Positions 14,390 to 60,071 of a stretch of 64,000 nt of DNA are shown one piece after another. The stretch is from Puniceicoccales bacterium (lineage in GTDB: Bacteria; Verrucomicrobiota; Verrucomicrobiia; Opitutales; JAIRLM01). Positions within the stretch are counted from its first letter, which is position 1; every line of letters begins with the position of its first letter. The position numbers and the translations under genes were made by a program. Under the pieces are notes generated by a model. That model was not told the DNA's origin. It was given only the letters and a program-made list of their open reading frames with translations, and searched no databases. The stretch is from assembly GCA_031268535.1 (NCBI GenBank), contig JAIRXB010000014.1, positions 8,108-72,107 on the forward strand, written 5' to 3'.

Positions 14390-15739
<1,350 letters not shown>

Positions 15740-16481: not shown

Positions 16482-16494
16482 TGCGGTTTCAGCG

Positions 16495-16790: not shown

Positions 16791-16799
16791 GCGTTTTGG

Positions 16800-16965: not shown

Positions 16966-16968
16966 AAA

Positions 16969-20893: not shown

Positions 20894-20941
20894 TAGTTTT
20901 CACTTGCCGGCCATATGCAATGGCCATAGGTAACGGCAATC

Positions 20942-21487
20942 TTGGAGCGGGAATACCTATGTCCGTCCAGCCAGCAGCTGTGGCGCAGCTGGCTCGAGGA
21001 AAACGGTTCCACCAGAAGGGATATTTGGCTGCTTTTCCACCGCAAGGACTCCGGCAATGGCGGCATAAGCTATCTGCAGGCCCTAGAGGAGTCCCTCTGC
21101 TTTGGATGGATAGACGGCATGGTGAAGCGCTACGGGCCGACGACGATGAGCCAGCGCTTTAGCCCGCGCGCCGCAAACAGTTCGTGGAGTGAAGTAAACA
21201 AGCAGCATGCACGGCTACTGATAGAATGCGGCAAAATGGCGCCGGCCGGCATGGCCGTGTTGCCAGATTTGGATCCGACATCCTACATTTGCGCTGAGGA
21301 TATCCTTGTGGAGTTGCGCAAAGACGGAAGAGTTTGGGAGAATTTTTGCGCATTCCCCACGTACTATAAGAACATCCGCGTTGACGCCATACATCGATTG
21401 CGCGCCAATGGCGAAAAATTTAACCGTGCACTCAACACCTTCATGGCGCGCACCAAAGAGAACAGGCGCTATGGCCGTTTCCGCTAG
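20942..21487 (+). CDS. YdeI/OmpD-associated (OmdA) family protein
   Basis: 181 aa. WRSWLEENGSTRRDIWLLFHRKDSGNGGISYLQALEESLCFGWIDG matches the family N-terminal signature (W..WL..H......W......G...........L..A.CFGWID). Confidence 0.6.
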   Translation: MEREYLCPSSQQLWRSWLEENGSTRRDIWLLFHRKDSGNGGISYLQALEESLCFGWIDGMVKRYGPTTMSQRFSPRAANSSWSEVNKQHARLLIECGKMAPAGMAVLPDLDPTSYICAEDILVELRKDGRVWENFCAFPTYYKNIRVDAIHRLRANGEKFNRALNTFMARTKENRRYGRFR

Positions 21488-22150
21488 GAGCCAGCTGGCC
21501 AGAGGCTGGCGGCGGTTCCATTTCGCCAAACATTTTTAGACGATCATTTCCACTTTTGCCGGCAGTGAGCATCCCGCTAAAATCTTCCAGCGCTTCTGAG
21601 CTTACGCTTCCAAGGAGGGTTGCGCCGTTCTGGTTAGCGGTTGCGCCCGCACTTGCCGATTTGAGGCGTTGCGCCATGTGGATGGCGGCAGTGAGTGCAG
21701 CTTCACTTTTTAGCGCCCTGCTGTGTACTTTGTTGTAGAAGTCGTTTGCGACAGCAAGTTTTCGAAGATCGTCGCCATGACTCGCCGCAAGCTCATTCAA
21801 TTGAGTTTCATCACAGCATTGCACTGCAGCCGCCAATTTGATGGTGTTTTTGGCTAGAGGCAAAAGCTTCCGGCTTCTGGCCAGTCTGGGTGCCAGCGTT
21901 GGCGGCGGCGCAGGCTTGTACGTTTTCTTGGTCGAATGTCGGGCGCGTATGTGATGCAAGTTCTCCTTTCACGAAAGGCGGAATGATTTTGTCTATCTTT
22001 CTAATGGCGTTGTATGCGGCAACTAGCTCAGACAGCCGTTGTCCCGGGCGGTCTTTGCTTTGCTTCGCAGTTTCGAAGGAAACGCCAATTGCAGCTTCAG
22101 CTAGGGGCCAGCTTGCGAGAGGTTGGCGGCGGCTCCATTTGGCGATTGGC
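21480..22150 (-). pseudogene. Degenerate, frame-broken extra copies of the 3'-terminal repeat units of the giant gene
   Basis: Track ORFs 21441..21959 (KLAAAVQCCDETQLNELAASHGDDL...AAIHMAQRLKS...KMFGEMEPP) and 21811..22197 (LSELVAAYNAIRKIDKIIPPFVKGELASH...NVQACAAANA) are homologous to the last about 250 aa of the giant protein (KLAAAVRCCDGTQLNEFAASHGGDL...AAIHMAQCLKT...KMFGEIG; LLELANTYEGIRKTNKAIPPFTEGKLACL...HIQACAAAAP). Shared nucleotide blocks confirm this, for example atgactcgccgcaa(a/g)ctcattcaattgagtt...gcactgcagccgccaatttg at 21777-21840 versus 22775-22845. Confidence 0.75.
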
Positions 22151-25100
22151 CTAGGCTGGTGTGCCTGTACTCTGTTTTGCCCTCCGCCTGGAAGCAAAAC
22201 CTGTCGTCGGCGCGGGTGCGGCGGCAGCGCAAGCTTGTATGTGGTCTGGGTCGCGTTTTGCGATCATCAAGCAGGCAAGTTTTCCTTCCGTGAAAGGCGG
22301 AATGGCTTTGTTTGTCTTTCTAATGCCCTCGTATGTATTGGCTAGCTCAAGTAGCTGTTGTTGCGAACCGCCGCCGATCTGGCTTTCAGTTTGGTAGGCG
22401 ACGCCAATTGCCGCAGCTGCGGCCGGGAGTAGAGTTGAATCAAGTGTCTTAAGGTCGGCAATTGATTTAACGTTGAATATGACTAGCGTATCGGCTACGC
22501 CGATTTCGCCAAACATTTTTAGTCGATCATTTTTAGTGTGGTTGGCAGCTAGTGTCCCACTAAAATCTTTCAGCGCTTCTGATCTTATGCTTTTAAAGAG
22601 GGCAGTACGGTTTTTGGCAGCGTTTTGGTCAGCGATTGCCGTTTTAAGGCATTGCGCCATGTGAATGGCGGCAATGAATGCAACTTCGCTTTTTAGCGTC
22701 CTATCGTGTTTTTTGTCGAAGAAGTCGCTTGCGATCGCAAGTTTGCCTTCTTTGGCAAGGCCTAGAAGATCGCCGCCATGACTCGCCGCAAACTCATTCA
22801 ATTGAGTTCCGTCACAGCATCGCACTGCAGCCGCCAATTTGTCTGGGTCCACAGCTCCTCCTATCGTTATCACGGCGTCGCAGCCCAAAAGTCTAGCAAA
22901 TGGCGTGCTTGCGCAGGCTTGGATTTGGGCGACGGTAATTTCTTCCTGATGACTGTTGGTGCTAAGACTGGCGCGCAGCAGCTCAAGGGAATCTTCGCTG
23001 GCCATTAGCGTTTCCAGTTGCTCACCGACTAAATTGTCCTTGATTCGAGCAAGAATATCGGCAGGGGCGCAATTTTTCAAAACGGCGGCAATGCAATGTA
23101 GAAACACAAATTTCGCGTTTGCCATTTCGGTTTGTTTTCGGCTGCAAGATAAGATGGCGCTTTTGCTGTTTGGGGATCGTTTTTTTAGTGCTTCGGCTTT
23201 TTCGTGTTCCCCGGATGCATCTTTGAAGTTTCTGGCGACAGCTATGAAAAATTGCGGATTCGCCACCGGTATGCTTTTGACTATTGGCGAGCTGCCGCTG
23301 TTTTGCTGCTCGCTTTCAAACCCTTTTCGGATGGCGTCCATCGATTGTGACTTCTGCAATTCAACGTCGCCGCCGACCAAAATGGCGGCAATGATAGACT
23401 GCGGATTCGACAAGTTTTCAAGGTTGCCGTAGTTTTTGGTGAGAAGATGATTTTGTGGATCGCATATGTATAGCGTCACCGGGCTTGTTTCGCTAAGTCC
23501 TTCCAGCACCTTTTTTTCGCCATAGGCAACTATGGCCGCGGCCCTATGTTTGATATCTTCGGTTGTTGCGTTCGGCAAAGTGGATCCGAATGCTGCAACC
23601 GGTAAAAGTTTCAGCATCGATTTTGCGTCTTCATCTTCCGCAACTGTCTTAAACCACGCACCGGGAACGTGCATCCATTGCGATCCGTTCATGAGTGGCC
23701 CCATGAGTAGAATAATGTGGTATGGTATCTGTTTGGCGAAATGCTCGAAAAATCTTGCGACGGAAGCTTGCAAAACTGGACCATCGTAGTTATTGATGAA
23801 TCTGGATTGGGATAAAATATTTCTTTTTGCCACTGCGTCCAAGCACTTCAAAAGCCGCTTTTCCACATCCGGGTCGCCGCTGATCGTTGAGGCCCTAAGC
23901 ATGAGCGATATTATGAGTTTGTTGGTGGTGTTCGAAAGGTTGCCTTCAAGTCTAGTCAACTTCGCCAATGCCGCGTCTCTTTCGCTTCCGGAAGCGGCTT
24001 CGGTGAGTCTTTTGAAACTGACGGCCAATTGCTGTGCCAACTTTTCCGTAACGTCTTCGTTCCATGCTGTGTGGTCGAGGCGATTTAGCTGATCGATGGC
24101 TCCGTTGCGAATCACAGCGTCAGCGAGTTGGACGGCGGTTTCTGCAGCGACACAACTCTGTTCATCTCTGCCGGCCCCAGATGAGGCTGCTTTGGCCGTA
24201 TTGTTTACCTCTTCGACGGGCAGGGCGGTCGTTAAAGCTTGATCTTCCGATACACATTCAATCAAGTATGGTCCGCAGTTACCCAAGAAATCAGCCTCGG
24301 TGGCGTATGCTACGAGTTTCTGCGTTTGGAGTGAACTTTCGTGTTCTTCGCCGGCCGACTGGTCCAGTACGCCCAATTGCTGCCGTATCAATTGCGCCTC
24401 AAGCATGATTTTGGCATAATTTGCTTCTGAATCTGAAGTGTTGATTTCGCGGGCAATTCCGGCCATCCTGTCGCGCATGTCTTTCGTTTTTTTCGATTTC
24501 TTTTCCGCGGATGCCGCAAAAAGATTGGCGATCATCGCTTCCGTTGAAGCGACGATTTGTCCTTTGCAAAAATCTGTGGACATAGCTTCCAGCACGTCAG
24601 CTTTGCTGATGTTTGAAATGGCGCCATTGCCGCAGACCAGCAGCATGGCGACAAGGTCATTGTAGAGAACAGAATCCGACTCTTTTATCTTAGCCAGCAT
24701 GTCGCGGTTCCAGACATCCGGAAATGCTATGGCGCCAGTGGATTGTGAATTTGCCATTTCCACGAAAATATCCGTTGGAACCGTGTGGGGGAATCTGGTG
24801 CTGGCGAATGTGGAAACTAGGTCGTTTCTGAGATGCAATATGGCGCCTGCGAAGAATGCTCCGCTCGTGCGCGATTCAGCGCCAATTGTCAGGCCGCGCC
24901 CTCTGGCATCTAGGTCAATGAGCGTTCTGGCATTATCTCTTATGCGTGTTAGCGCCGCCAGGCTTGGGACAGTGTAAAAAACACTGCGAAGAGCCTCGTC
25001 GCCATCCGCCTCTGCGCCAGCGAGCTGCGCGAGTTGAGAATGGCGGCCTATCCCTAAATTGCGACCTGTCCTGCCACGGCCATTGGCGCGGAGCATACCG

Positions 25101-28100
25101 TTAAGATTGATGGCGCCATCGAGATAGGCTTTCTTTATTTCGGCCGCCATAGCAACGTCGTCACCATGATTAGGGGTGATAAACGTACATTCCATAATGG
25201 CAAGGCTTGATTCGGCTTTGCACTTTCTCACAAGGTCGGTAACAAGGTCGTTAAAACGATCTGTAATGGGACTGGTATTTTTTTCTATCTCACTTCTGAC
25301 TTCGAGGCTTTTTTCCGACAGATTAAACCATTGCGTGCCAGCGGCGGCAAGTATCTTTCTTCTGTCTGTGGTGTCGACTTTTCCGCCGCGCGAAGCGTCC
25401 AGCAAGCTCTTCCGTGCGATATTGGCGTCGGAGGCAGTATTGCCACATACGGTGTCGGCCAAATGCTGAATTTGATCTATGGCGTAAACCGAATCGTGCG
25501 TAGCCGATTCGATCTCGTCGACCGCTCGCTTGATGACTAATCTGGCTGCACCTGTTGCTTGTTTGGCATTAGATGCATCTACTGCAGTAAGTGAGCCAAC
25601 GATTGCTTTTGCGACGGCTGTCATGGTAGGCAACGCCTTTGCAAAAACGTCATTTTCGAGATTGCCGACACAGCATTCCGTAAGCTCCACTAGAAGGACT
25701 TGTTCAATGAGTTTTAGTTCCGGCGGCCACGTAGTAGCGCCCGTATCGCGCATAGATTTTCGCACCGGAGAGTTTTGATCATCAAAATCAAATGCAGCGA
25801 TCCATCGTACAACGTGAGGCTTGGCAGCGTCATCGACGATTTTCGCGACTCCGAATAGCTTCGCAACGTTGCTATTCTCACTACTCAGCAGAACTCTTGC
25901 ATTATCAATTATCCCTTTAGGACGAATATCACCAACTTTTGCTTTTGCTGCGGCGATCGAATCACTAATTGCCTTTCTCCTTTTCTCCAATGTTTTCCCG
26001 GGAATCATTAGGGCGAATAGGCGAAATGCATCCAATTGTCCGTAGGTGTCGAGTTGGTGCCAATCTTTGTCGGCCAAAAGATTGGTAAGCAAATCTTTGC
26101 TATTGGTGCCCTTTGCAACTAATTTGTCGATGAGGCCTTGAAGTTTAGCGTTGCCACCAACGCCAGCTATGGTGCGCGCGATCACGGCCATGCGAGTGCG
26201 CAGCTCGCTGCAGTCCTGCTTGGCTCCGCGGCCACGTTCAACCAAGCTAGCTATTTCAGCTTTTAATTTTTCAAAAATTGGAGTAACACATTCTTCGTCT
26301 TTGCGCTCGACATTCCTGTCGCGCCACGCACCAATGCCAACTGACAAGAGCTGCGAAACGGTCATGGACGCAACCTGCTGCGTTGATCCGTGGCGCACAA
26401 TTTCTTCCAAAATGCTGGCTTCCGGCTTTATCTGCGCCAAGGTTTCCAGATCGATTTTTTGGATTAGGTTCTGCGCGCCAGCCGTAAGCATGAAGCCTCT
26501 GAGATGCGTTTCGTTGAGAGCGGATATGGCATCGCAGCTTCCGAGGCGAATAATTTGAGCTACGTCTGCTCCCTTGAGAGACTTGCTAATGCTTTCAATA
26601 TCCCTTTCCCGAAGGCGAGCTAGAGCTCGCGGCATGCGTTGTGATAGCAGCAAAAAGTCTGCATAAGTAAGCACGAAAGCGGCATCGGACTCCATGCATG
26701 CGAGCCAGCCGGCGGCCGACGGCGTGCCGCTTGTTTTTGCGGTCTTTGCCGCGTTAAGGGCGCCTGTAAAACTTGTCCCTTTTGCATTAGCGGCATACGC
26801 ATGAGCAACTTGCGTAAGTGCAGCATCCCATACCGCCTGCCATAACTTTGATGTGGAGAAACCGCTATCGGAAAATTTATCCGTGTCCGGCCCATAGCCG
26901 AATGTTTTATGCATATTGGCGAGAACTGCAACGCATGCGATATCGGCGCTGTCGCCAAACTTGTCGTCTATGGCAATCACGAATGCCAAATTGGCAGCAA
27001 GGTGTTCGGCCAAAAATGATTCCCCGTCTTTTTCCGACACTACTCCCTCGGCGCCTCGAAGGCAGGCAGAAAGAGCGGACGATCTGGATTTGATGCGAGC
27101 GATTACCGCATTGCTAAGAGTAGCGCTGCCAATTTCATCGAGTGCCTGTGCCATTTCGGCTTTTCCGGGGGATTTGCGCACCATGTCCCTAGACAAAATC
27201 GCCGCCTGCTTTTGCCCTATGGCTGCATTATTTTTTGCGTTAGCGAGCAGGGCGTAGACCGTACTTACGCATTCATCCGACGAGATTCTCGCTATGCGCT
27301 CTTTCGAGAGCCTTGTGGACAGCATGACGTGAAGCGGACTTCCGTCGGCTATAAATTCCGCCGGCTTCGCCGCAACTTTTTCGCCCCCGCCATCTACGGC
27401 TTCGGATGGCATGCGAGGTTGTGGAATGACATCGTCGCAATCGACATCGCATTTGCGCACATCAACCGCCAAACTGTGGCGCATTAGCAATTCAATTTGT
27501 TTATCCGTGATGTCATCGACCGTTATGGCTGGCGCCCCATCGCCCCTGACTATCGCCATTAGGAGCTTGACGAAGCCCTGCTCAATGCGCCCGCCGTCTT
27601 TGCACGATTTTTCGAGATCGATCAGTTCGTCGAAATCTTGCAGGCGGCCCGGCAAAAGTATTTCGCTAAGAGCTGTTCCAGTTGTTTCGTGGATGCGTAT
27701 GATTTGCCACGGGCAGAGCAGGCGCCTCAGTTCTACGGGAAATGCCTCAACCGTGGCCCATTTTAGACGTTCAACGTCAGACTCCGTTAGGAGTGGTGTG
27801 AATTCGTCCGTAAGTCGACCCACTACATCTGGCGCGCCCTTGAAGGCGGCTATGAACTCGGGAAATCGAAACATGTGCCTGATGAGTTGGTTGTTTGAGA
27901 TTCTTTGTAGTCTCTCGGACGACACCGATTTGGCGATAGCGGCGATCCATGGGCTGTTTGGCACACAAAAGGAAAGTATGTCGACTAGTGCCGCTTCGCT
28001 TTCTTGATTTGGGACGCCATTAGCGTCGCACTCAAGAAGTTTGGCGGCGACTTCATCCAACATGGATTCGCCGTCGGATTCTCCCGGTCGAGCCCTCAGG

Positions 28101-31100
28101 CGTGCTGAGGCCTTTGATTCACATAGCTGTCTGCCGCTCATTTTTGCCAGTAGCTCTACGCTGCCAATAGAAATGAGCCGCTCGAAGAGAGGATTGAGTT
28201 TGGACACTTTCTTAACTTGCTCGGCCTCCAATAGCGAAACTCCATCTGTCGTTGCAAATATTTGACTGAGGGCCTGCTCACCGAATCCCAATGCGCAAAA
28301 TGCCGATGGCGAATACGTGTTAAATAAGCCGCATCTTTTGCCCAAATCGTTTGATTCTGCAGCTGCCGATTCGTAGTACGCATCACCATACTCTCCGCCC
28401 ATTAGGGCGAGGCGAAACAGCTGACTGTCTCCAGTGTCGATTTTAGACTTTGTGCTAGCCACTGACCTTACGCTTTCGAGGATGTATTGCGCGCCAGCTT
28501 GGTCAGATTGCCCGAGAAGTCTGCGTGTCGTGTCCGTCGACCCGGAAAGTGTTGCACACAGAAGAATTTGATAGACAAGATACGATGAGTAGGCGTGCCT
28601 TGTTCTATCTGCGGCTAAAAATTTGTCCAGCTGTAGCGCAGACAGTTTCGCAATGTCTTTAACTGGCACTTCTCCTGGACGAATGCGCTCAAGGGATCCT
28701 ATGGGAATGTGTATGGATTTTGCATCTTCGATTAGGTCGCGCGATATGTCTATGCCAACTTGAAGCAGGATGTCGGACTCAATGGTGCGAAGCGCAGAGA
28801 GTCGCAGCTGAGGGCTTTTTTGCCCGACGACCACCATGCTGTTGTCGAGGCGAGATTCCGGAATGGCGTATATGCATATGCGCAAGAACCTATTCAGCGT
28901 CGGAAGGTCTCCGCCGCAACTCTCAACCAAGGCTGCGAAGGCTGATCGTTGTGACGTTACGGCATTGGCGTCGCCGTCCATCATGGCGCGCAGAAGGCGA
29001 AGGTGGCTCACCGCCGCATCGTAGCGCTTAATGTCCCCTTTAATGTACGGATCAAAGCCACGAGACCGCTCTATGCAGGATCCAGTCGAGGCATCCACGA
29101 TGGCAAGCCCGGCAATTTTGTTTGCATCGGCCTTGATGGCCGCAACCAATGCGGCGGCCTCTTCTTCCGTCGCCAAAACGATCGTGAAATCATCTCCGGT
29201 TTGGTTTTTATAGATAAATGCGTAGCGCGGTTTAGGCTGGCTGTCGTGGACTATTGGAATTGCATTCGCGAATGAGGCGCCAAAGTTAATTGAAACGCGA
29301 ACATTTGGGCCAAAAATATTTTCGTAAGTTAGATATCGATCTGCGCACGCTAGGCCATCCGCTTTCCATGGTATTTCGCCGGCCGATTTGCGCATGAATT
29401 GTGCCGCAGGCAAGCTGGACTGCACCATAGTTTGGGGGCAATTTTTGGCGCCACCAAAAATTGCAAGCTGCGTTCTCCCGCCGTGGCCGCGCGTCGGATT
29501 AGTGTATTTATTCTCAAATACAGTATATGCCCGAACGCCACTATCGCACGTGCTCCAATAATTGCAGAGGGGGAGTTTTCTGCCGGGGCTCATGGCGTTG
29601 CACTCGTTGTACTCCTGCTGTTCTTCGGCCTGCGCTTGGTGCTCCTTTTCCGTCTCAACTTCCACTTCTACCGTATTATTTTCCGCTGCCTCTTCTGCGC
29701 CAGATGACGATTGCTTGCTGCTGATTACTATTTGCCCAAGCGGTTCCTTTTGAATGTCGCCATCTTCGCAATTGACTTTCATCGGATGCCCGTCTGGATC
29801 GGTTCCGATTTTCACGCCCTCTGCTGAGGCGCAAATATCTAGAAGTCCTCTGCATTCCCTGTCGAAAAATTCCATTACTTCAAGTCCGAGCGGTGTTTCA
29901 TTTTGCTGTGCTTCGCGTAGGGCGGCTAAAACTTGCGCTCTCATCGAGCTGGCCGTTGCGAGGGCGGCATCCGTTAGCGATATTTCCACTTTGCTTCCGA
30001 GGTAGACTTGCTCCGGGATGAAATCATTTGAGTTGCTCAGAAATTTAGACAGCGCGCAAACTACTGGCCGCAGCGATTCCATTGCACTGCTAACCTGTTC
30101 TCCTGACGCGCCAGAGCATCTGGCGAATGCATCGACTGTTTTGCCGACAACCCAATTGCCGACGCACCTGCCAATTTCAGATAGAGCTGCCATCATGGTT
30201 TGCTTTTTGGCCACTTCCACGTCATTATGCTGCAGCGTAGCAAGCAGCACTTCGCCGTTGGCGAACTCTTCGTCCATTATGGAATATCGGGCTGATTGTG
30301 ATGATGCGGCGGAGTACCGGCTGAGGACGCTGTCAGGTATGCCGCGTTCATTTCTGCCTGACCAAACTGCACGCTGAAGCAGCGTATCTGGCATGGCGAC
30401 AATTGTGTATTGCGACAGAGGTGCGTCCGTTGGAGCCATGAGTGCTCGTGCGCGCATGGCTGTTTGGAAGAAAATATCTTCTGTTGTCCCGGCAAGATGC
30501 GGGATGTTGACCAGTATGCCTTTGTGCGGCATCGGCACGTCTAGGCCGGTGCACATGGCTTGGCTTGTTGCCCAAATTGTGTTTGATGGCTTAATGCCAA
30601 ATCGTTCAAGCACCGCCATGCCGCTGCCTTCAAATACTATGCCGTCCGTGGCGCCAGGCGTCAGCATGCGGCGATTCCCGTCGCGATCTTCGTAGGCAAC
30701 GCTTACCTGGCGGCCATTATTTGAGAACCACTCCTGCGTGTAGCGTGCAGCCCAATATCCTGGGTCGGGTTCGAGATTGCCGGCGATTCGCGCGTTGTTT
30801 GCCGCCATCTGATAGAAAACTCCACCGGGGTCGCATATGGCGCATATCCTGTCGATGGCGTCACGGTTGGAGACATGCGTTTGGTTGGGCCTGGCATTCG
30901 TTACGGAATCGAGAAAGGCTCCTATGTCATGTTGGCAGTCGACGCAGCGTATGGCGAGAAGTTTTTTCCCAATTTGTTTGCCGCCGCTGCCAGTTACGTC
31001 ACTCTCTCCTCTAGATATGGAGCGCAAGTCGTGAATGTGTTTGGGGATATCTGGGAATTTTCTGCTGAATTGCTGAGGCCACTTATGGGCTACTCCAGGG

Positions 31101-34100
31101 GTGCCGGTGAAGGCGGTTATTTCCCTGAAGAACCTAAGGGCGGCCGTTGAGCGCGTTTCCCTCATGACCGTTGGGGGCCTCACTTCATTGTCGATGAAGT
31201 TGCGCATGAGCTTAATCGCTTTGCCAGGGTTCGCCCTAAAGTACCTGCAGCAATTTACGAAGAGAAGATCCGGCTGTGTTTTGGCCATGTGCAGATATTT
31301 GGGCAGCATTGTGCGGCCGTCTTCTGCATCTGCATTTCCGCCAGAAAATGCTTCGGCGAATAATAGACCCGCTGGCGTTTTGTCGATGGACACGATTGAG
31401 CTATCTCTGGCCATTTGCAGCGCGGCACTGCGAAGCGTGCCATCAATGTACTTATTCCAAACGGCTCGCGGCATGCCGGCATTTGCCACAAACTGAAAGT
31501 GCAGCGGAATTGACGTGCCAAGGTGTGCAAATTGGGCATTAGTGGGAGTTCCCTCCTTGTAAACGCGCAGCGCAGCCCCGCTGCTTCCGTCGCCATAGGC
31601 GACGCCAGCCGTTTTTTCCAGGCAGCGCGGCAGCTCCGTTGACAGCAATCCGCGCACCAGCGCTAACTCTTTAAATAGCGGCACGAGACTGGTGCCTCCA
31701 GAAAGGGCGCGATCGAACACCCGGTCGAGGATGAGACTTCTTGCAGCCGCGGTACCGTCGTAAAGGCGCTGCGCAGCTTCGAAGAAGCCTGCTTCGTCCG
31801 CTGCGCCATTCAATTCAGCGGCGACGCCTTCATCCGAGGCGTAACTTGGCTTTGTGAGGTACCCTACAAGATCTTTAACGCAGAATTGCAGATTACAACC
31901 TTCCTTGCCAAATGCGAATTCAAATTGCAAATCACCTACATCGGCAGTTGGATTGCCATCAACATATCTTACGCCGCAGCCAATTGTGCTGAATGTTTGC
32001 GTGCTAAAAAGATAGGCAATTATGTGTCGCGCAACTGCTGGGGCGACATCGCTATCGTATTCGGACGCGCTCATTGCCGCCTGGCCATTAGTCGATAGCC
32101 GTGCGGCAGTCCTGGCCGCAGCCAGGCCGCTGGCTCCAGATGCCCAGGTTAGCGGCGGTTGTCTGGTGTCCTTTGCCCATTTGCTGTCATGGCCGCGGGT
32201 GTACTTTTGGAGGCTGACCTCCTGTTTGACTTGGGTGTCATCTTCTTCAACCAGTGCGTAATAGGTCTGCTCGACAACGTCGAAAATTCTGTCGTCGACG
32301 TGTTTGTCGGCGTTGCTTTGGTCCGTTGTGATTAGCGAGCGCATTGGGTCAAAGACCTTGTGGGCCTCGTCCACGAGGAGTCGGCTACGTTCCTTAAACG
32401 TAGACAAAATGCGCGACAAAAGGTGAAGTCTCTCCATCATGTCACTGGGTGAGCCGTCATCCATCGTCGATGACTGTAGCCCTTCCGCGCCAGTAAAAAC
32501 TTGCTCCGAGAGAATGGTGGTCTCCATAACCATTCGGTTCATCATGCAGTCATCGATGACAATAACCTTGCCGCCATCGGCGCCGGCCACCCTAATTTCT
32601 TCCCAAATTCTCCTTAATGCGTCAATGTCTTTGGTGAATGTTGAAAGCCAGTCGGCTTTGGTGGTGCTGCCGGCGACAGCCCCAAGGTAGACCACTGACA
32701 TAGACTGTCCGAAAGTTCCCATTAGGTCTGCCGCCATTGAGGCGGCCATGCTCGAAGGCGCTATGCAGACAGGTATATAGCCTTGAGCGTCAAACACCAT
32801 GCAGCCGATTGGCATCATGACTTTTGTTTTGCCACCACCCATAACCGTTGGCACGATACTTCCTTCTGCGGCGCCGCCGAGCCTAGCTCTTTCAGTAGAG
32901 CTAGTGACGCTGGTGATGGAGTTTACGAATCGCAGCAATTGCTCTCGCCGCAAAACGATGCCCTCCATGGCCTCCCAGGCCAGCGCAACGATATGGAGTG
33001 TCGCTTGGCCGGGATCCCAGAATTCGGCTTCATCGGCTTCCTCGATTGGCGGTTTTGCGCCGCTTGCCGCGGTCTTCAAAAAGTTATATCTGCACAGAAG
33101 GCTCGCATATTTTACCGTCAGATCGAAAATCGTTTCAGCATCGGGGGGGTTGGTGAGTTCCGAATTAAGAGCGCGCAGTCGAGTCATGAAGCGCGCTACG
33201 TTGCATTTGTCTGCGTCATCTTTTTTCTGCCCAACCAGAAGGAGCAACGGTACGGCGTCGCTCGCCTTGAGGCCTCTGTTAGCTATTCTGCCGTTAAGCG
33301 CTTTTTCGAGTCCATCCTTTGCTTGAGTGAGGTCTCTAGTTGTCTGATGCAAATGCGCCTTCGCAAGTGCTGCTGAGTTTGCGTTTCGCAGCACATCCAG
33401 CTGAAATTGTCTGTGAACCTTCAGCATTGCGCCGATATCTTGCGCTCTTCTTCCGATGGAAGAGGTTACTGATGCAGGTTCCTGCACAGGTTCTTCGGCT
33501 TTGGCAATTTTGACGGCGGATGTGGCAACTGAAGTCAGCGCAGTCTTCCATCTGGCGGCGGCGGCTTTCATGGATTTGTCGCTCTCCTTTTGGAGCCAGG
33601 CTTTAGTTTTGATCGGAATGGCGTCAGTGAAAAGTTGCATGTAGCGAGTCATTTCGCCGGCGGACAGAACTAGCCTATAGTCCCTATGGGGCCGTGCGGC
33701 ACCGGTACGCGCAGTCTCTTCAGACGTCGCATATTTCGCAAGATAGTTAAGCTCGCTGTTAAATTCTTCGCTGCCCATGGATGCTATATAGTCTGCGCCG
33801 CGGTCACAGTAGCTGCGGAGCTTACACAGCATGCGCAAGTGCGGCTTAGCGCCGCAGTCGGGCAGATTATCGATCGTGCTGATCAGTTCGCCATAGAGCT
33901 CCACTTCGATTTGCGAAAGCGCCGCGCCGGAGTTGGTGCGCGCCTTCCGTATCAGTTCAGCGGCGACGGTTTCTTTTGGTGGAATGTTGCGCAGGGCAAG
34001 CGTGGCCAACGCCAAGTAGCCTGCAGGATTTTCGCTGAAGTAGGTGTCGCCTATGGAGGAGTGGTCTCGCGGGCGGTAGGTTGTCTTGATGACGCTTCCG

Positions 34101-37100
34101 GCAAATTGCTTGCCGATTGGCGGACTCGTGTGCACAAACAGATCGTTTGTGCGCACAAGAAGCTCGTAGCGGCTGCCGTGCGAATCTATGTCCTCCAGCA
34201 CTATGCCTTTTGCGAAAGAAAAGAGCGGGTTTACCGCTTCGGCGACGCCGGTTGCCGGGTTGGTGCGCGCTATGAGTCTAGGGACTACGTGCAGTGACGC
34301 ATGGCGCGTCAGCATTAGCCTTTCAGTGCCGTTGTGCTGTGTCGATTCGAAGTGCAGCGGGGTTTCGTGGTCGTAGCGTAATCCGCTGATTTCGACGGTT
34401 GCAATGCTTTGCGTTTGACCTGACGCCACTAGGTCGGAAACGATATTACGGGCGGAGGCGTCTCTGTTCGCGCGTGTTGCAAAGTTCTCCGAATTGCTGT
34501 TGGTCGCCGTAGTAGTTCCCGTAACTAGGATTGCGTTTGGATCGCCGCCCGTAAATGAGCTGAAATATTCCAATCCAGAGGCTTCGGCCCCAGACGCCCC
34601 AATTGGGCGTGAATTCGCGTAGAGCACGCGCCTTTCATTTGCTCCCCTGCCCTTTCGCAGGTCAAAGATTGCTGCAGCCTCATTGCTGTGAGTTTGCAGT
34701 TCAAAGTCGATGGTTGGGCCTTTGCGGACAGATGCATCACGCCTTGCGAAAAAAACCTTATTCATATGAGCCGACATTATCGATTCGTCCGTTTTTGTCA
34801 CAAACCACATGTCGTATTCGTCGCCCATGAGTGCTTCGGGGACAATTCCGCCGAGGCCACATGCTATGGCTTCTTCGCGATTTCTGATCAACCTTGCCGC
34901 TTTCACGCCGGAGTTGTCAAAAAATAAGTTGCCGCTATTGCCGCACGTTTCGATGTCGATGCTCCACGGTTCGGTGCCGCGGTCAACGCTTACCGTAATG
35001 CCGTCGGATGAATAGCGATCACTCGGGAATCTTACCGCTTGGCCGACGTTCCCGAGGGGCGCAGATTCCCGTCCGAATCGCTCGTAGTAGGCGGCGTCTC
35101 CACCCTTCAGAACCCCAAAGCCGGCCGTCATAAGTTGGTTGCCGCTAAGGAATAATCCAGTTGGCCCAAAGCCTCCGATGTCTTTGAAGCACCTGCGCAG
35201 TCCTCCGCGACTAGGATCGGTTGCGCTGTCAGCCTTTTTTGCGAAGTGTGGGGTATCCCATGGAGATGCTTCCGGGTGGTCCTCCATTTGCGCCTCTCCG
35301 CCTGGGGACGTGTTACTCACAAAGCAGTATCCTCTGCAAACTGCAGTCGCCTTGGTGGCACCTAAATAATCGGCAGTGCCGGCTTCTGACCAGAACAGCT
35401 GCGGATAGCCGGGGTACCTTTGCGGCATTGCGTTTTTTGCGGCAATTGCCATGACGGCTCCAATGGAGGCTCTCGGTTGGCATGATTTACAACATGACGC
35501 AGTCATCTGCATGAGTTTTTCGCCCATGTTAGCCAGCGCAATGGACATTGATGGGCTGACGCGGCGTGGATCTTGCATTCCAAGATAGAAAATGGAAATG
35601 AAAGCATGCTCAAGGGTGCTGACCCAGTAGCCGCCGGTAGTACCGCCTGTGCAACTCCCACATTGGCGAGAGCCCATATCGTGGCCGCTGAAAACTTCCG
35701 GATCAATTACATCTCCTCCCGAATACGTGCAAGGGCAATAAGTTCCATCGCTGTCGCGCATGAAACAAGTATGGTTAAAGCGATAGCCATTACCAAGCGT
35801 GCAACTTTCGCATTTGGCTGCAGCCAACATTATTTTGGGAATTTCGACCGATAGAACTTGGAGCTGCATGCGATACATCGCCAATTGCTGATCAAATGTC
35901 ATCCTAAAGGTTTGGTGCATTGCCTGTGTCGTTCCTGAATCGCTATTGGTGGGCTTCGAGTAAGGTCTGAAGACAATTGTGCTGTCGTCGTGAGTGCCAA
36001 GAATGCCCTGTGACAACATCCTTGGTTCGCCGCTAAAATCTACGTTGGAGCGAAACTTTATGACGTGTCTCCTTCGCATTAGAAAGCTTGTGTTGCACCC
36101 GAGTTCTGCGAGGACTTTCGCAACTTTAACGTTCCAATCCCGATCGTCATAATTGAGCTCCGTTCCGGATTCTTTCGAAGTATAATATACTAGCCCAGGG
36201 AGATTATCTAGGTATGGCGCCTCTATGATGCTGAGCAATTCCGATAGATTGGCCAGCGCCTCATAGTCCGGGCCGCTTTCGCGAATTCTGGGTGGTTTGA
36301 GGTTGCCTTGGAGGATTCCATCAAAAGAAACATCTTGGTATTCGAAGCCAAACTCCCTACATCCGGCGTTCCATAGGCATCTCACAGCCGCCGACATGCC
36401 CTCTAGGTTGTTGTCCCATTCTTCCTTCAGTTTGTTCTTTGCGACCTTTCCGTCGGCGCCAATAATGGTTTCTGAAACTTTCGCTATCGCGGCGTTGAAT
36501 TTGGACGATGTTCGACCTTCGGAATTGAGTGCAAATGCCGACAAATCTTTTTGCATGTCCTGCATTATGCTTATTGCCCCGAGTGTGCGCTTTTGGAAGT
36601 AGCGTGACGGTGGCGAGCAGTTGCTTTCGGCGTAGGATGTTATAAATGGCGTAGGGTATGGGACAGCTCCATTGAAGCGCATCTCCGGAAGCCGCACTAT
36701 CCAGTCGTCGCTGCTGCTCGAAGCAAGGTCAACAAATGTTGCCGATGAAACTGACGGCGACAAAATGGATAGCCGAACAAGTGCTTTGTCGAGTTCGTTA
36801 CTGTTGTCGAAGGAGGTGGACGTATGCAACGGCACAAGGCCTGAGGCTATTATTTCAGCCAACCATTGTGTTTTTTCCGCTTCGCTCCAAGTTGCGGACG
36901 GTATGCCGACGCGCATTTTTCTCGCCAAAGTCGGTTTGGACGCGAACACTTCTAGAATATGTCCGTGCGCTCTCAACATCAATCCGTCGAGCGTCACACC
37001 TCTACCTCTTCCTGCCGGTGGGAGTGTGATTGACGCCTTTCCATTCCTGCTGCGGGTTATTGCGAATCCTGATGCAGCAGTGGTAGCGGTTTTTTCCTCG

Positions 37101-38500
37101 CATGCATTAACTTGATCTGTTAGCTTCTCAACTAGTTTTGTGAATTGAATATCGGAGACGCCCAAATTTCTGCCCGGGCCGAGATGGGCCCGATAGTCTG
37201 AGAAGTCCGGAACAAAATCATCGAAGATGTTTGCGGCCAGCAATTGAAATTTCGTTTTAAACACAGCCGCCTCCTGGGCCGACAGATATTGCTCGACGTA
37301 GCGAAATCCGAAAGATAGGGCCGGCAGTTTGGCTCGCAGAGTATTCATTTTGGAGACTGCTCTTCCACCTGCGTCTATAACTGTGTCAAATTTATTGTAC
37401 GGATCATAGTGTGTGTCAATGGCTTCGGAACAGCCGAAAAGAGCCTGCTTTAGGTATCGCACAAATTCCATTTGCCGTTCTTCTAGCGTAGATTCGTTGG
37501 CGCTGGCCAATTCGTCGCTGCAAAAGTCTGCCAGCACCTCAATCGCTCTTGCGGCATTGGTTTCATCGCCATCAAGCGTGGACCAGAATGGGGGGTCTTT
37601 AGGCTTTAAAACCAAACGGCTGAATTCCCATCCGTTCCCTTGCCAATAATATTTGTGCTGGACGTAACCCGGCGCACAAACCTTGCGGCCGTCTGCTATG
37701 CTGGTGGCGCAGCTGAATGATGTGGCGTCTGCGATTGTTTTTTGTTCGGCCGCGTAGTAGGTCGCAAGTCTCTTGGCGAAAGCGCTTCCCGGCGCGCTTC
37801 CGAGCAGTGCGTTCGCCGCATTCATCACATTTCGGCACTTCGGCGAATCCAAATGTTGGCCCATTCGCCATTTTAGCGCATCGATTTCGCGCAGCAGCAG
37901 TGAAATCGTGTCTCTTCCGACGCGATGATCCCACCCAAGCGTGTTGCAATCCGCAATATTCTTTTCTACGGCGACAGCCAATAGGTCTGTCCACGCCTGA
38001 TTTAGAGTCTGTTTGTGTTGCGCTTTAGTTGCTGTTCCGCCGCGTTGTGCGACGACAACGCCTGCGATAGCATCGAAAAGATCGCCGTCCAATGGGATCT
38101 TGGTGTAATTAAGTCTTACCAAGCAGGCACGATGGATGTGCGATGCGTTTGATAAATCATTTTTCAGCCACACCTCACAGTCTGCGCCGGTATGACGCAC
38201 CATAAGGAAATAGTCACTAATATAAGAATGATCACCCGCGCCGAGGTTAAGATGGTCTAATCTCTCAACATTGCTTACCATGGCGAGCAGTTTGCCAACT
38301 ATTGCGACCGGGTCTTTTGCGTCTGTAGACGGCGGCAGCCGCCGATGCAATTCTTCAATTTCGCCAATCAAACTTTCGACTCCAGACGGACGCGCGCCTA
38401 CTGCGCCGCCGGCATTGACGGCCCTCGAAAGTTCTCCGAGGACGTTTGGCAGCGCGTTCGGATTGGCCAAATAATCTTGCGGCTTGGCGCCGATGTTCAT
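22151..38500 (-). CDS. Giant multidomain protein (5449 aa) of unknown function, with a P-loop NTPase-like module (GGGKT Walker A ... VIVIDD ... LLVDEAH), a Cys-rich module and a C-terminal repeat array
   Basis: Single uninterrupted 16.35-kb ORF in the track. There is no N-terminal signal peptide or transmembrane segment (MNIGAKPQDYLANPNALPN...). Motifs visible are IVPTVMGGGKTKVMMPIGCMVF, GKVIVIDDCMMN and ERSRLLVDEAHKVFD. The Cys cluster is CESCTLGNGYRFNHTCF...CPCTYSGG...CGSCTGG...CCKSCQP. C-terminal repeats of about 110-130 aa show KLAAAVRCCDGTQLNEF, FIAAIHMAQCLK and KMFGEIG. Confidence 0.9.
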   Translation of the reverse strand: MNIGAKPQDYLANPNALPNVLGELSRAVNAGGAVGARPSGVESLIGEIEELHRRLPPSTDAKDPVAIVGKLLAMVSNVERLDHLNLGAGDHSYISDYFLMVRHTGADCEVWLKNDLSNASHIHRACLVRLNYTKIPLDGDLFDAIAGVVVAQRGGTATKAQHKQTLNQAWTDLLAVAVEKNIADCNTLGWDHRVGRDTISLLLREIDALKWRMGQHLDSPKCRNVMNAANALLGSAPGSAFAKRLATYYAAEQKTIADATSFSCATSIADGRKVCAPGYVQHKYYWQGNGWEFSRLVLKPKDPPFWSTLDGDETNAARAIEVLADFCSDELASANESTLEERQMEFVRYLKQALFGCSEAIDTHYDPYNKFDTVIDAGGRAVSKMNTLRAKLPALSFGFRYVEQYLSAQEAAVFKTKFQLLAANIFDDFVPDFSDYRAHLGPGRNLGVSDIQFTKLVEKLTDQVNACEEKTATTAASGFAITRSRNGKASITLPPAGRGRGVTLDGLMLRAHGHILEVFASKPTLARKMRVGIPSATWSEAEKTQWLAEIIASGLVPLHTSTSFDNSNELDKALVRLSILSPSVSSATFVDLASSSSDDWIVRLPEMRFNGAVPYPTPFITSYAESNCSPPSRYFQKRTLGAISIMQDMQKDLSAFALNSEGRTSSKFNAAIAKVSETIIGADGKVAKNKLKEEWDNNLEGMSAAVRCLWNAGCREFGFEYQDVSFDGILQGNLKPPRIRESGPDYEALANLSELLSIIEAPYLDNLPGLVYYTSKESGTELNYDDRDWNVKVAKVLAELGCNTSFLMRRRHVIKFRSNVDFSGEPRMLSQGILGTHDDSTIVFRPYSKPTNSDSGTTQAMHQTFRMTFDQQLAMYRMQLQVLSVEIPKIMLAAAKCESCTLGNGYRFNHTCFMRDSDGTYCPCTYSGGDVIDPEVFSGHDMGSRQCGSCTGGTTGGYWVSTLEHAFISIFYLGMQDPRRVSPSMSIALANMGEKLMQMTASCCKSCQPRASIGAVMAIAAKNAMPQRYPGYPQLFWSEAGTADYLGATKATAVCRGYCFVSNTSPGGEAQMEDHPEASPWDTPHFAKKADSATDPSRGGLRRCFKDIGGFGPTGLFLSGNQLMTAGFGVLKGGDAAYYERFGRESAPLGNVGQAVRFPSDRYSSDGITVSVDRGTEPWSIDIETCGNSGNLFFDNSGVKAARLIRNREEAIACGLGGIVPEALMGDEYDMWFVTKTDESIMSAHMNKVFFARRDASVRKGPTIDFELQTHSNEAAAIFDLRKGRGANERRVLYANSRPIGASGAEASGLEYFSSFTGGDPNAILVTGTTTATNSNSENFATRANRDASARNIVSDLVASGQTQSIATVEISGLRYDHETPLHFESTQHNGTERLMLTRHASLHVVPRLIARTNPATGVAEAVNPLFSFAKGIVLEDIDSHGSRYELLVRTNDLFVHTSPPIGKQFAGSVIKTTYRPRDHSSIGDTYFSENPAGYLALATLALRNIPPKETVAAELIRKARTNSGAALSQIEVELYGELISTIDNLPDCGAKPHLRMLCKLRSYCDRGADYIASMGSEEFNSELNYLAKYATSEETARTGAARPHRDYRLVLSAGEMTRYMQLFTDAIPIKTKAWLQKESDKSMKAAAARWKTALTSVATSAVKIAKAEEPVQEPASVTSSIGRRAQDIGAMLKVHRQFQLDVLRNANSAALAKAHLHQTTRDLTQAKDGLEKALNGRIANRGLKASDAVPLLLLVGQKKDDADKCNVARFMTRLRALNSELTNPPDAETIFDLTVKYASLLCRYNFLKTAASGAKPPIEEADEAEFWDPGQATLHIVALAWEAMEGIVLRREQLLRFVNSITSVTSSTERARLGGAAEGSIVPTVMGGGKTKVMMPIGCMVFDAQGYIPVCIAPSSMAASMAADLMGTFGQSMSVVYLGAVAGSTTKADWLSTFTKDIDALRRIWEEIRVAGADGGKVIVIDDCMMNRMVMETTILSEQVFTGAEGLQSSTMDDGSPSDMMERLHLLSRILSTFKERSRLLVDEAHKVFDPMRSLITTDQSNADKHVDDRIFDVVEQTYYALVEEDDTQVKQEVSLQKYTRGHDSKWAKDTRQPPLTWASGASGLAAARTAARLSTNGQAAMSASEYDSDVAPAVARHIIAYLFSTQTFSTIGCGVRYVDGNPTADVGDLQFEFAFGKEGCNLQFCVKDLVGYLTKPSYASDEGVAAELNGAADEAGFFEAAQRLYDGTAAARSLILDRVFDRALSGGTSLVPLFKELALVRGLLSTELPRCLEKTAGVAYGDGSSGAALRVYKEGTPTNAQFAHLGTSIPLHFQFVANAGMPRAVWNKYIDGTLRSAALQMARDSSIVSIDKTPAGLLFAEAFSGGNADAEDGRTMLPKYLHMAKTQPDLLFVNCCRYFRANPGKAIKLMRNFIDNEVRPPTVMRETRSTAALRFFREITAFTGTPGVAHKWPQQFSRKFPDIPKHIHDLRSISRGESDVTGSGGKQIGKKLLAIRCVDCQHDIGAFLDSVTNARPNQTHVSNRDAIDRICAICDPGGVFYQMAANNARIAGNLEPDPGYWAARYTQEWFSNNGRQVSVAYEDRDGNRRMLTPGATDGIVFEGSGMAVLERFGIKPSNTIWATSQAMCTGLDVPMPHKGILVNIPHLAGTTEDIFFQTAMRARALMAPTDAPLSQYTIVAMPDTLLQRAVWSGRNERGIPDSVLSRYSAASSQSARYSIMDEEFANGEVLLATLQHNDVEVAKKQTMMAALSEIGRCVGNWVVGKTVDAFARCSGASGEQVSSAMESLRPVVCALSKFLSNSNDFIPEQVYLGSKVEISLTDAALATASSMRAQVLAALREAQQNETPLGLEVMEFFDRECRGLLDICASAEGVKIGTDPDGHPMKVNCEDGDIQKEPLGQIVISSKQSSSGAEEAAENNTVEVEVETEKEHQAQAEEQQEYNECNAMSPGRKLPLCNYWSTCDSGVRAYTVFENKYTNPTRGHGGRTQLAIFGGAKNCPQTMVQSSLPAAQFMRKSAGEIPWKADGLACADRYLTYENIFGPNVRVSINFGASFANAIPIVHDSQPKPRYAFIYKNQTGDDFTIVLATEEEAAALVAAIKADANKIAGLAIVDASTGSCIERSRGFDPYIKGDIKRYDAAVSHLRLLRAMMDGDANAVTSQRSAFAALVESCGGDLPTLNRFLRICIYAIPESRLDNSMVVVGQKSPQLRLSALRTIESDILLQVGIDISRDLIEDAKSIHIPIGSLERIRPGEVPVKDIAKLSALQLDKFLAADRTRHAYSSYLVYQILLCATLSGSTDTTRRLLGQSDQAGAQYILESVRSVASTKSKIDTGDSQLFRLALMGGEYGDAYYESAAAESNDLGKRCGLFNTYSPSAFCALGFGEQALSQIFATTDGVSLLEAEQVKKVSKLNPLFERLISIGSVELLAKMSGRQLCESKASARLRARPGESDGESMLDEVAAKLLECDANGVPNQESEAALVDILSFCVPNSPWIAAIAKSVSSERLQRISNNQLIRHMFRFPEFIAAFKGAPDVVGRLTDEFTPLLTESDVERLKWATVEAFPVELRRLLCPWQIIRIHETTGTALSEILLPGRLQDFDELIDLEKSCKDGGRIEQGFVKLLMAIVRGDGAPAITVDDITDKQIELLMRHSLAVDVRKCDVDCDDVIPQPRMPSEAVDGGGEKVAAKPAEFIADGSPLHVMLSTRLSKERIARISSDECVSTVYALLANAKNNAAIGQKQAAILSRDMVRKSPGKAEMAQALDEIGSATLSNAVIARIKSRSSALSACLRGAEGVVSEKDGESFLAEHLAANLAFVIAIDDKFGDSADIACVAVLANMHKTFGYGPDTDKFSDSGFSTSKLWQAVWDAALTQVAHAYAANAKGTSFTGALNAAKTAKTSGTPSAAGWLACMESDAAFVLTYADFLLLSQRMPRALARLRERDIESISKSLKGADVAQIIRLGSCDAISALNETHLRGFMLTAGAQNLIQKIDLETLAQIKPEASILEEIVRHGSTQQVASMTVSQLLSVGIGAWRDRNVERKDEECVTPIFEKLKAEIASLVERGRGAKQDCSELRTRMAVIARTIAGVGGNAKLQGLIDKLVAKGTNSKDLLTNLLADKDWHQLDTYGQLDAFRLFALMIPGKTLEKRRKAISDSIAAAKAKVGDIRPKGIIDNARVLLSSENSNVAKLFGVAKIVDDAAKPHVVRWIAAFDFDDQNSPVRKSMRDTGATTWPPELKLIEQVLLVELTECCVGNLENDVFAKALPTMTAVAKAIVGSLTAVDASNAKQATGAARLVIKRAVDEIESATHDSVYAIDQIQHLADTVCGNTASDANIARKSLLDASRGGKVDTTDRRKILAAAGTQWFNLSEKSLEVRSEIEKNTSPITDRFNDLVTDLVRKCKAESSLAIMECTFITPNHGDDVAMAAEIKKAYLDGAINLNGMLRANGRGRTGRNLGIGRHSQLAQLAGAEADGDEALRSVFYTVPSLAALTRIRDNARTLIDLDARGRGLTIGAESRTSGAFFAGAILHLRNDLVSTFASTRFPHTVPTDIFVEMANSQSTGAIAFPDVWNRDMLAKIKESDSVLYNDLVAMLLVCGNGAISNISKADVLEAMSTDFCKGQIVASTEAMIANLFAASAEKKSKKTKDMRDRMAGIAREINTSDSEANYAKIMLEAQLIRQQLGVLDQSAGEEHESSLQTQKLVAYATEADFLGNCGPYLIECVSEDQALTTALPVEEVNNTAKAASSGAGRDEQSCVAAETAVQLADAVIRNGAIDQLNRLDHTAWNEDVTEKLAQQLAVSFKRLTEAASGSERDAALAKLTRLEGNLSNTTNKLIISLMLRASTISGDPDVEKRLLKCLDAVAKRNILSQSRFINNYDGPVLQASVARFFEHFAKQIPYHIILLMGPLMNGSQWMHVPGAWFKTVAEDEDAKSMLKLLPVAAFGSTLPNATTEDIKHRAAAIVAYGEKKVLEGLSETSPVTLYICDPQNHLLTKNYGNLENLSNPQSIIAAILVGGDVELQKSQSMDAIRKGFESEQQNSGSSPIVKSIPVANPQFFIAVARNFKDASGEHEKAEALKKRSPNSKSAILSCSRKQTEMANAKFVFLHCIAAVLKNCAPADILARIKDNLVGEQLETLMASEDSLELLRASLSTNSHQEEITVAQIQACASTPFARLLGCDAVITIGGAVDPDKLAAAVRCCDGTQLNEFAASHGGDLLGLAKEGKLAIASDFFDKKHDRTLKSEVAFIAAIHMAQCLKTAIADQNAAKNRTALFKSIRSEALKDFSGTLAANHTKNDRLKMFGEIGVADTLVIFNVKSIADLKTLDSTLLPAAAAAIGVAYQTESQIGGGSQQQLLELANTYEGIRKTNKAIPPFTEGKLACLMIAKRDPDHIQACAAAAPAPTTGFASRRRAKQSTGTPA

Positions 38501-58889: not shown

Positions 58890-60071
58890 TCAGCTATCCG
58901 CCACTCCACTCGTCAAAGTTTGCGCCCCCTGGCCAATGGCGCTAGACTTGCAGCCGCAGTCGCTAAGCATTTCGCCGTAGTCGTAGTGGCCGTAGCTCCC
59001 TTCGTCCTTTGAAATGCGCAAGATTCTACCGATGTGCTGCCTGTATATGGCCGATTCTGCTGGATCCGAAGTGGCGTCTCCGGCTGCAACCAGCGACAGA
59101 AACCCTCCATGTTCTTTTGCCCACTCCATGTCGCTGTCGCCGATGAAGTCGCGCGCAAGTCCCTCGCCGATGCCTAAGCCGTTGAGACCGATAAAGCTGC
59201 AATGTGCTTTTGCGGCTATGGCGGAGCCGATCATTTCCCCCATGGAGTGGCCGACAATTATGGGGACCAATTTTACGGCATTCCTGCCGTCGCCATTGTG
59301 AGCCGCGATTGCGTCCATGCGCTCTTTTGCGAAAGCATAGCTTTCCTCCACGATGGGCGGCACGGCGCCGCACAGATTCATGGCGCACTGCCAAATGTTT
59401 CCAGACGAGCGCGTTCCATCGAACCAAATTATGACGGGGCGCACCATTTGCTCATTTCCGCCTTCGAAAGTTTCATGAGCTATTCCCATTTCATCCAATT
59501 CGCCAACGGTCATTTCCGATGGAGCCATGCGGCAGTCGGCGCCGTCACATGTGGCGCACACTCCGTCGCCGGCAATGGGGCTTTCCATGCCTTCGCATTT
59601 GAGGTCGGAATCTTCCTCGTCGTAGCGCCTTTGGGCGCCGTAGCTGTGGCCGATCCATCCGAGAAGGTCCATAAACTTCTTGCCGCGGCCGAGAGTTGCT
59701 GCAAAATCTTCCGCCGTCACATCGTCAACTTTTGCGGCCTCGTAATGCTTTTTCGATTTGGCGAAAGCGCCGAAGCATGTGAAGCATAGGGCTATGCTGC
59801 GGTAGTAGGTGCGCCATTGGGATTTAATCATTACGCCGTTGCCGCTGGCGAGGAGGGCCAAGCTGATGACGCCGTTGGCTACGACGCCAAAAATAACTAC
59901 GCATGGAACGGCCACCCAGCCGATTGGCGAGCAGGCGACGGCGGCCAATGCGAATGATTTTGTTGCATAGTCGGCCTTTTCCTCGGCCAGATCTGGAGAG
60001 TCATTGGCGCAAATGTATGATGGCAGCGAAAATAATCTGGCCGGTCGGGATGAATTCACGTCCACGGCCAA
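58890..60071 (-). CDS. Membrane-anchored alpha/beta-hydrolase, lipase-like (GHSMG nucleophile elbow), paralog A
   Basis: 393 aa. It has an N-terminal hydrophobic hairpin (SPIGWVAVPCVVIFGVVANGVISLALLASGNG), a conserved motif WRTYYRSIALCFTC, and a C-terminal region with PVIIWFDG and VGHSMGEMIGSAIAAKAH (GxSxG). Confidence 0.7.
   Translation of the reverse strand: MAVDVNSSRPARLFSLPSYICANDSPDLAEEKADYATKSFALAAVACSPIGWVAVPCVVIFGVVANGVISLALLASGNGVMIKSQWRTYYRSIALCFTCFGAFAKSKKHYEAAKVDDVTAEDFAATLGRGKKFMDLLGWIGHSYGAQRRYDEEDSDLKCEGMESPIAGDGVCATCDGADCRMAPSEMTVGELDEMGIAHETFEGGNEQMVRPVIIWFDGTRSSGNIWQCAMNLCGAVPPIVEESYAFAKERMDAIAAHNGDGRNAVKLVPIIVGHSMGEMIGSAIAAKAHCSFIGLNGLGIGEGLARDFIGDSDMEWAKEHGGFLSLVAAGDATSDPAESAIYRQHIGRILRISKDEGSYGHYDYGEMLSDCGCKSSAIGQGAQTLTSGVADS

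Follow-up and report, generated by a model that had tools for sequence, protein, structure and literature searches.

Scrambled copies of the 3' end of a giant gene, probable debris of tandem duplication, between two convergent genes of a Puniceicoccales contig

The join points of tandem (segmental) duplications, short-homology duplications of the L-Y-Y-R form, and decaying remnants are known in bacterial chromosomes; duplications of this form have reportedly been studied by Reams and Roth. Silent-cassette loci, such as pilE/pilS of Neisseria, vlsE of Borrelia, and MgPar of Mycoplasma genitalium, contain many cassettes, and conserved tracts flank their variable segments. Orphan modules of contact-dependent growth inhibition (CDI) and Rhs systems are said to have been treated by Koskiniemi et al. 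in 2014. Orphan cdiA-CT/cdiI and rhs-CT/rhsI modules sit downstream of the CDI and Rhs toxin genes (PMC4927057). Here, we examine the 3' end of a giant gene and the 663 nucleotides (nt) that separate its stop codon from that of a convergent ydeI-like gene. The locus lies in a 64,000-nt window of a 72,107-nt contig from a Puniceicoccales (Verrucomicrobiota) metagenome-assembled genome (MAG), and all coordinates refer to this window. The interval contains diverged and rearranged copies of the giant gene's end, which are likely the debris of a lineage-specific duplication (Table 1). Like tandem-duplication remnants, the copies are direct repeats in one orientation, both flanking genes are intact, and the orphan sequences may have undergone near-neutral decay and later deletions.

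The last ~230 codons of the giant gene form the segment that has similarity to the DNA directly past the stop. Read in the direction of the gene, the order is block b, a connector (sp), block a, a short tail, and the stop codon, followed by copy x, block a', a linker, block b', and copy x'. Blocks b and b' are 77% identical in nucleotide sequence over 339 nt, with one 18-nt gap (E = 1e-76), and 61% identical in amino acids (aa). Their first 87 nt are 90% identical, and the rest are about 77% identical. Blocks a and a' are 68.7% identical over 195 ungapped nt (E = 5e-18) and 42% identical in aa, with protein-level similarity beginning at 22426, within the connector. Copies x and x' are 82% identical over 56 nt (E = 3e-12). 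These values bear out the original prediction, made from the letters alone, that the downstream DNA resembles the 3' end of the gene. The 80-90% nucleotide identity given there was too high, as the measured range is 69-82%, and 90% is found only in the first 87 nt of b. The stop codon, which had been read as TGA at 22151, is actually TAG (22153-22151). A flanking motif that had been said to recur does so exactly twice (21504-21527 and 22121-22144), where 0 occurrences are expected by chance.

Table 1. Coordinates of the giant gene's end, the interval downstream of it, and gene fragments elsewhere in the window.
Feature	Position	Strand	Description
Giant open reading frame (ORF)	22151..38500	minus	5449 aa; MDR1436040.1, LBI39_02435; orphan family
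Block b	22503..22841	minus	In-gene, putatively ancestral copy, KLAAAVRCCDGTQ...KMFGE; b-like segment collinear in orthologue P0004
Connector sp between b and a	22415..22502	minus	In-gene, 26 codons; no counterpart downstream
Block a	22220..22414	minus	In-gene, putatively ancestral copy, AIGVAYQTES...HIQACAAA
Gene tail	22151..22219	minus	22 codons and TAG; APAPTTGFASRRRAKQSTGTPA; FAS/RR aligns with the P0004 C-terminus
Copy x	22096..22143 (full repeat D4, 22088-22143)		Apparent duplicate of the convergent intergenic spacer and degenerate last bases of ydeI, stop included
Block a'	21901..22095 (protein level from 22107)	minus	Orphan copy of a; inside mechanical ORF 21811..22197
Linker a'-b'	21841..21900	minus	60 nt; homologous to the gene tail (FAS motif); holds the frame break
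Block b'	21520..21840	minus	Orphan copy of b; inside ORF 21441..21959
Copy x'	21471..21526		Apparent original position: intergenic spacer and last 17 nt of ydeI (21471-21487)
YdeI/OmpD-associated family gene	20942..21487	plus	Intact; convergent; last 17 nt within x'
Orphan mgtE copy	16500-16782		283 nt; source mgtE 17502-17783 (internal); 94%, one frameshift; convergent sfsA/mgtE intergenic region
Orphan sfsA copy	16876-16952		77 nt; source sfsA 16163-16239; 78%; sfsA/mgtE intergenic region
Orphan enolase 5' copy	8498-8791		Source 14373-14696; 74%; between tandem paralogous genes
Orphan enolase 5' copy	10655-10972		Source 14420-14737; 93%; between tandem paralogous genes

The copies do not extend a repeat array, as had been proposed for the C-terminal part of the gene. 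Tandem Repeats Finder detects no tandem array in the giant gene, and the profiles of a and b match the giant protein once each. Searches with tblastn and hidden Markov model (HMM) profiles find one copy of each block in the gene, one of each downstream, and no further copy of either elsewhere in the window. Two older in-gene copies suggested by eye, a0 (QIQACAS..FA) and b0 (FVFLHCIAAVLK), lack HMM-profile support. At 22105-22145, the supposed orphan end of a b block shows no homology to b as it stands in the gene and corresponds instead to what follows b', the spacer and the ydeI 3' end. Of the suggestion that the region undergoes expansion, contraction, or deletion, local duplication and deletion are retained, but not the tandem array. 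Folding of x and x' gives z-scores of +0.98, -0.59, and -1.58, with no structural signal, Rfam gives no match over 20000-24000, and no convincing minus-strand promoter or terminator is found in the region. At the b'/x' junction (21511-21536, plus strand), a terminator-like hairpin followed by a T-run, GGCGGTTCCATTTCGCC AAACATTTTT, lies 24 nt past the ydeI stop. The T-run derives from the b' codons CTAAAAATG, and the fold z-score is only -1.6.

The origin of x is indicated by the convergent gene. The ydeI-like gene has 39 homologues (E down to 1e-122), many of them named YdeI/OmpD-associated, and carries the precomputed families PF13376/PF28474. Its protein aligns end to end with the homologues, the best non-self match being 72% identical. 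The C-terminus, NRRYGRFR*, is kept in 15 Puniceicoccales orthologues, and four of the six residues of RYGRFR* (Y, G, R, and F) are invariant among them. Because this end is conserved, the ydeI-adjacent copy, x', is taken as the original and x as derived from it. Copy x is identical to the ydeI 3' end at 14 of 18 positions over 22088-22105 (matching part 22088-22104), the TAG included. It appears, from these alignments, to be a duplicate of the old intergenic spacer together with the 3' tip of ydeI.

A three-way alignment locates the join between the two kinds of sequence. The stretch from x to a' tracks x'/ydeI as far as GC(A/C)AT and then follows the in-gene block a from GCAATTGGCGT. The breakpoint between x and a' is at ~22095/22096, inside a 7-nt microhomology, AT(T/G)GC(C/A)G. 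The spacing from a to a' is 319 nt, which equals the distance from the breakpoint to the start of a (22096-22414). The spacing from x to x' is 617 nt; the extra 298 nt reflect the presence of b' and a few further bases in the orphan copy, where the gene has its 33-nt end. The join point thus carries a fragment of the neighboring gene, and both the giant gene and ydeI are intact. A right-hand gene fragment (the ydeI 3' end) fused to a left-hand fragment (the start of a) at a short microhomology is a further likeness to tandem-duplication remnants, and the join reads as the signature of an L-Y-Y-R tandem duplication with its ends in two convergent genes.

The age of the stop codon was examined using relatives of the giant protein. 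With the last 1200 aa of the giant protein as the query, an exhaustive HMMER search returned four proteins among 1.84 billion representatives: the giant protein itself, the product of the b' ORF, and two relatives, both of which are distant (21-32% aa identity to the giant protein). P0003 (3750 aa) matches giant aa 1715-4218 at 32% identity and aa 4455-5101 at 21%. P0004 (843 aa), from another Puniceicoccales MAG, covers the C-terminal portion of an orthologue that is truncated where its contig ends; the other source is a JGI metagenome contig of unstated taxon. P0004 is collinear with giant aa 4601-5317, and its counterpart of the b block (SEVA..IAI..QN.A...KSI...SL) falls in the corresponding place. 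Past the last aligned residue, P0004 has 141 residues versus 139 in the giant protein, and P0003 has 364 versus 348. In a three-way alignment, the P0004 C-terminus, ..LPFLRRCNDLIVA, stands opposite ..GFASRRRAKQSTGTPA of the giant protein. The next gene in both relatives (loci L024 and L025) starts at the stop or no more than 57 nt from it, and neither locus has a downstream copy of its own 3' end that is detectable by nucleotide or protein similarity.

Both relatives run collinearly with the giant protein, terminate close to where it does, and lack downstream copies, which indicates that the b-a-stop arrangement inside the gene is ancestral, as is the place of the stop codon. The original prediction held that the stop could be recent, which these comparisons argue against. 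By the same comparisons, the downstream copies appear to be a derived, lineage-specific addition. Other searches add no further relatives: word-indexed homologue searches with the last 500 aa of the giant protein and with aa 1800-2700 returned nothing, as did scans of GTDB genomes and JGI metagenomes with its last 699 aa, and no close strain came to light. The genomes nearest by the neighboring beta-CASP gene are Puniceicoccales MAGs, whose isolate names, we assume, resemble those of termite-gut MAG sets. At 23 Puniceicoccales/Opitutia loci aligned by synteny through the beta-CASP gene, no giant gene, peptidase, or ydeI is found in the flanks.

The gene and the orphan pieces together occupy three reading frames, and the downstream copies of a and b lie outside the frame of the gene and give only short ORFs, as originally predicted. 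Copy x is in the frame of the giant gene after the TAG and meets a TGA after 17 codons. Block a' is shifted by +1 from the frame of the gene, within an ORF of 128 codons, and b' with x' is another +1 beyond a', within an ORF of 172 codons. The b' ORF is annotated from a GTG at 21824 as hypothetical protein LBI39_02430 (127 aa); both NCBI and JGI call an ORF here. Removal of one A from an A5 run at 21847-21851 joins a', b', and x' into a 251-codon ORF, which makes this run a candidate for the frame-break site in the linker. The ratio of nonsynonymous to synonymous substitution rates (dN/dS) is 0.83 for b/b', with 24, 19, and 19 differences at codon positions 1, 2, and 3, and 0.63 for a/a', with 28, 30, and 36. 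This pattern, with an even distribution among codon positions, is as expected for one constrained copy and one freely drifting copy. Neither a' nor b' contains an internal stop codon, a state that neutral drift could also produce (simulation, joint P about 0.03-0.16). Programmed recoding into a'-b' was also considered and dropped; it would need read-through of the TAG, bypass of the TGA, and two +1 shifts.

These data suggest a mechanism that begins with an ancestral gene end of the order b-sp-a-tail-TAG and a spacer (x) of ~46 nt before the ydeI stop. A 319-nt tandem duplication (today 22096-22414), reaching from the final codons of ydeI to where block a begins, would then have occurred at AT(T/G)GC(C/A)G. 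One intact copy of the duplicated end would have survived for each flanking gene, leaving an orphan [a'-tail'-x'] between them. Later, a copy of b would have been placed between tail' and x'. This could have happened by a duplication of ~1 kb, given the b-b' spacing of 983-1001 nt, and a subsequent deletion of ~0.7 kb at GC(G/C)AAAT microhomologies, or else by a template switch. The orphan pieces, lying past a stop codon, would hence have drifted near-neutrally. A single duplication followed by deletions was rejected, since it cannot give the order a'-b' downstream; this order therefore requires at least two duplication steps or a template switch. We infer the order and number of these events, as we do the lack of function. 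Unlike a simple tandem-duplication remnant, the locus would thus carry at least two superimposed events, with the blocks scrambled (a'-b' downstream and b-a in the gene). It also differs in that the remnants are old (18-31% divergence) yet undeleted.

Similar gene fragments are found elsewhere in the window (Table 1). The intergenic region between sfsA and mgtE (16482-16968, 487 nt) contains one fragment of each flanking gene, in the order predicted for a tandem-duplication join. Two copies of the 5' part of the enolase gene span its upstream region and first ~100 codons (source 14373-14737), and the younger of them still reads as a 106-aa enolase N-terminus. The tail of the giant gene is one more case of a general process. 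Five tandem paralogous genes of 499-550 aa, with 24-36% pairwise identity and no Pfam match, occupy 5090-14276, and a repeated upstream element of ~86 nt (TTTTTTCTTGCGTCATCCCGGC..CATTGTCATACT) precedes three of the five (starts 6694, 8895, and 11055). Another pair of adjacent tandem paralogues lies at 58890..60071 and 60159..61277 on the minus strand (about 68% nucleotide identity over 490 nt). A 723-aa ORF at 45772-47943, with an N-terminal Mur ligase domain and C-terminal MurB domains (FAD_binding_4 and MurB_C), appears to be a MurC-MurB fusion.

We consider it likely that the 663 nt are lineage-specific duplication debris, neither part of the giant gene nor its former end, and the debris is probably non-functional. 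Several observations weigh against this. Blocks a' and b' retain open frames of 128 and 172 codons and gene-like codon usage, although the latter is to be expected of copies only 20-30% diverged. A single-base deletion would fuse their frames to 251 codons, and the indels within the blocks are all multiples of three (18 and 15 nt), which could reflect past or present selection for translation. The mismatches in a/a' amount to 31% versus 18% in x/x', though the model gives both the same age; the counts for x are small. In addition, the similarity of block a to the P0004 tail is not significant by itself, which leaves length and the collinearity as far as b to carry the argument on the stop position. 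Part of this evidence would suit a functional small paralogue of the giant's C-terminal domain, encoded by 21441..21959 (LBI39_02430), by 21811..22197, or by both, as would the two annotation calls and an AGGAG located 3 nt upstream of a TTG at 21959. That reading is very unlikely. The AGGAG is inherited from codons of block a, the dN/dS values are near 1, and the C-terminal 25 residues of the b' ORF are translated intergenic spacer and antisense ydeI. Moreover, among the 1.84 billion representatives, b is matched only by the giant protein and this ORF, P0003 and P0004 match other parts of the query, and the b' ORF cluster holds this contig's two gene calls only. The annotated hypothetical protein LBI39_02430 is most likely a relic, which calls for caution in annotation. 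It is decidedly unlikely that the gene was once longer, with more a/b units, and that a recent deletion or frameshift created the present stop and severed the old 3' end. Although x continues the gene frame directly past the TAG, a' and b' are one frameshift apart, and a unit without b between a and x would suit a deletion of b, x is a copy of the intergenic spacer and the ydeI stop rather than coding sequence. In neither copy does the x-to-a' join preserve the frame, and the two orthologues terminate near where the giant protein now ends (139 vs 141 and 348 vs 364 residues), neither being extended.

The original prediction had also raised the possibility of silent cassettes that recombine with the expressed 3' end. 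There is only a very small chance that the downstream units are such donors and serve to vary the C-terminus as pilS, vls, or the orphan CDI/Rhs modules do. As at silent-cassette loci, the copies are partial, lack a promoter, and lie immediately 3' of an expressed gene in its own orientation, and the better agreement of the first 87 nt of b/b' than of the rest could be read as a trace of exchange. However, this better-kept 5' part of b is where residues conserved among the orthologues (V, D, K, and Q) lie, and the stretch is explained by constraint on the in-gene copy there. Unlike silent-cassette loci, the locus offers a single, evenly diverged donor for each block, and these stand in another order than in the gene. 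Uninterrupted identity extends over no more than 20 nt in b/b' and 13 nt in a/a', and 20 nt is about the expectation under uniform divergence (hand estimate). The same sort of fragments flank mgtE, sfsA, and enolase, housekeeping genes in which variation of the cassette type would be meaningless. The likeness to CDI and Rhs orphan modules lies in displaced 3'-end fragments just past a very large gene, in the same orientation, whose homology to the expressed gene could in principle permit recombination. In contrast to those systems, the giant protein has no toxin domain and no delivery or repeat domain of the TPS/FHA, Rhs/YD, or PAAR kinds (no family match in Pfam or PADLOC), the interval to ydeI holds no separate immunity-like ORF, and no integrase or transposase is found at the locus. 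What the fragments carry is the same C-terminus in diverged form, not alternative toxins, and the orthologues of the giant protein share that C-terminus, which is not polymorphic. A broader proposal is equally improbable: that this lineage has an unusual mutational regime, in which microhomology-mediated duplications of gene ends are frequent and slowly purged (four instances in 64 kb), and that a' and b' occasionally recombine with the expressed 3' end and so diversify the C-terminal domain of the giant. The least likely explanation is an assembly artefact, arising from a chimeric join or from a repeat that was resolved wrongly. Although the contig belongs to a MAG, an assembler could not make copies that are 18-31% diverged and lie in unique flanks from one locus, and a chimera with a foreign orthologue would retain the b-a order and would have no ydeI fragment at the join. 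The 16.3-kb ORF and its neighboring genes are also intact.

The feature is real but, if the downstream DNA is duplication debris, as we favor, it is ordinary and would not surprise a specialist. On this reading, the locus illustrates neatly how a tandem duplication over two convergent gene ends leads to scrambled fragments without damage to either gene. The giant gene should be taken as complete at its present stop. The protein that it encodes contains a Walker A motif, GGGKT, at aa 1888 (window 32825-32839) and a DEAH motif at aa 2044 (window 32360-32371). Sequence searches of the 5449-aa protein against Pfam, PADLOC, and the PDB gave no match, and the P-loop/DEAH protein appears to belong to an undescribed family of giant nucleoside triphosphatases. 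This orphan family and the density of relics in the lineage are more noteworthy than the repeat itself; several relics in 64 kb may be a sign that this uncultured lineage purges junk DNA weakly.

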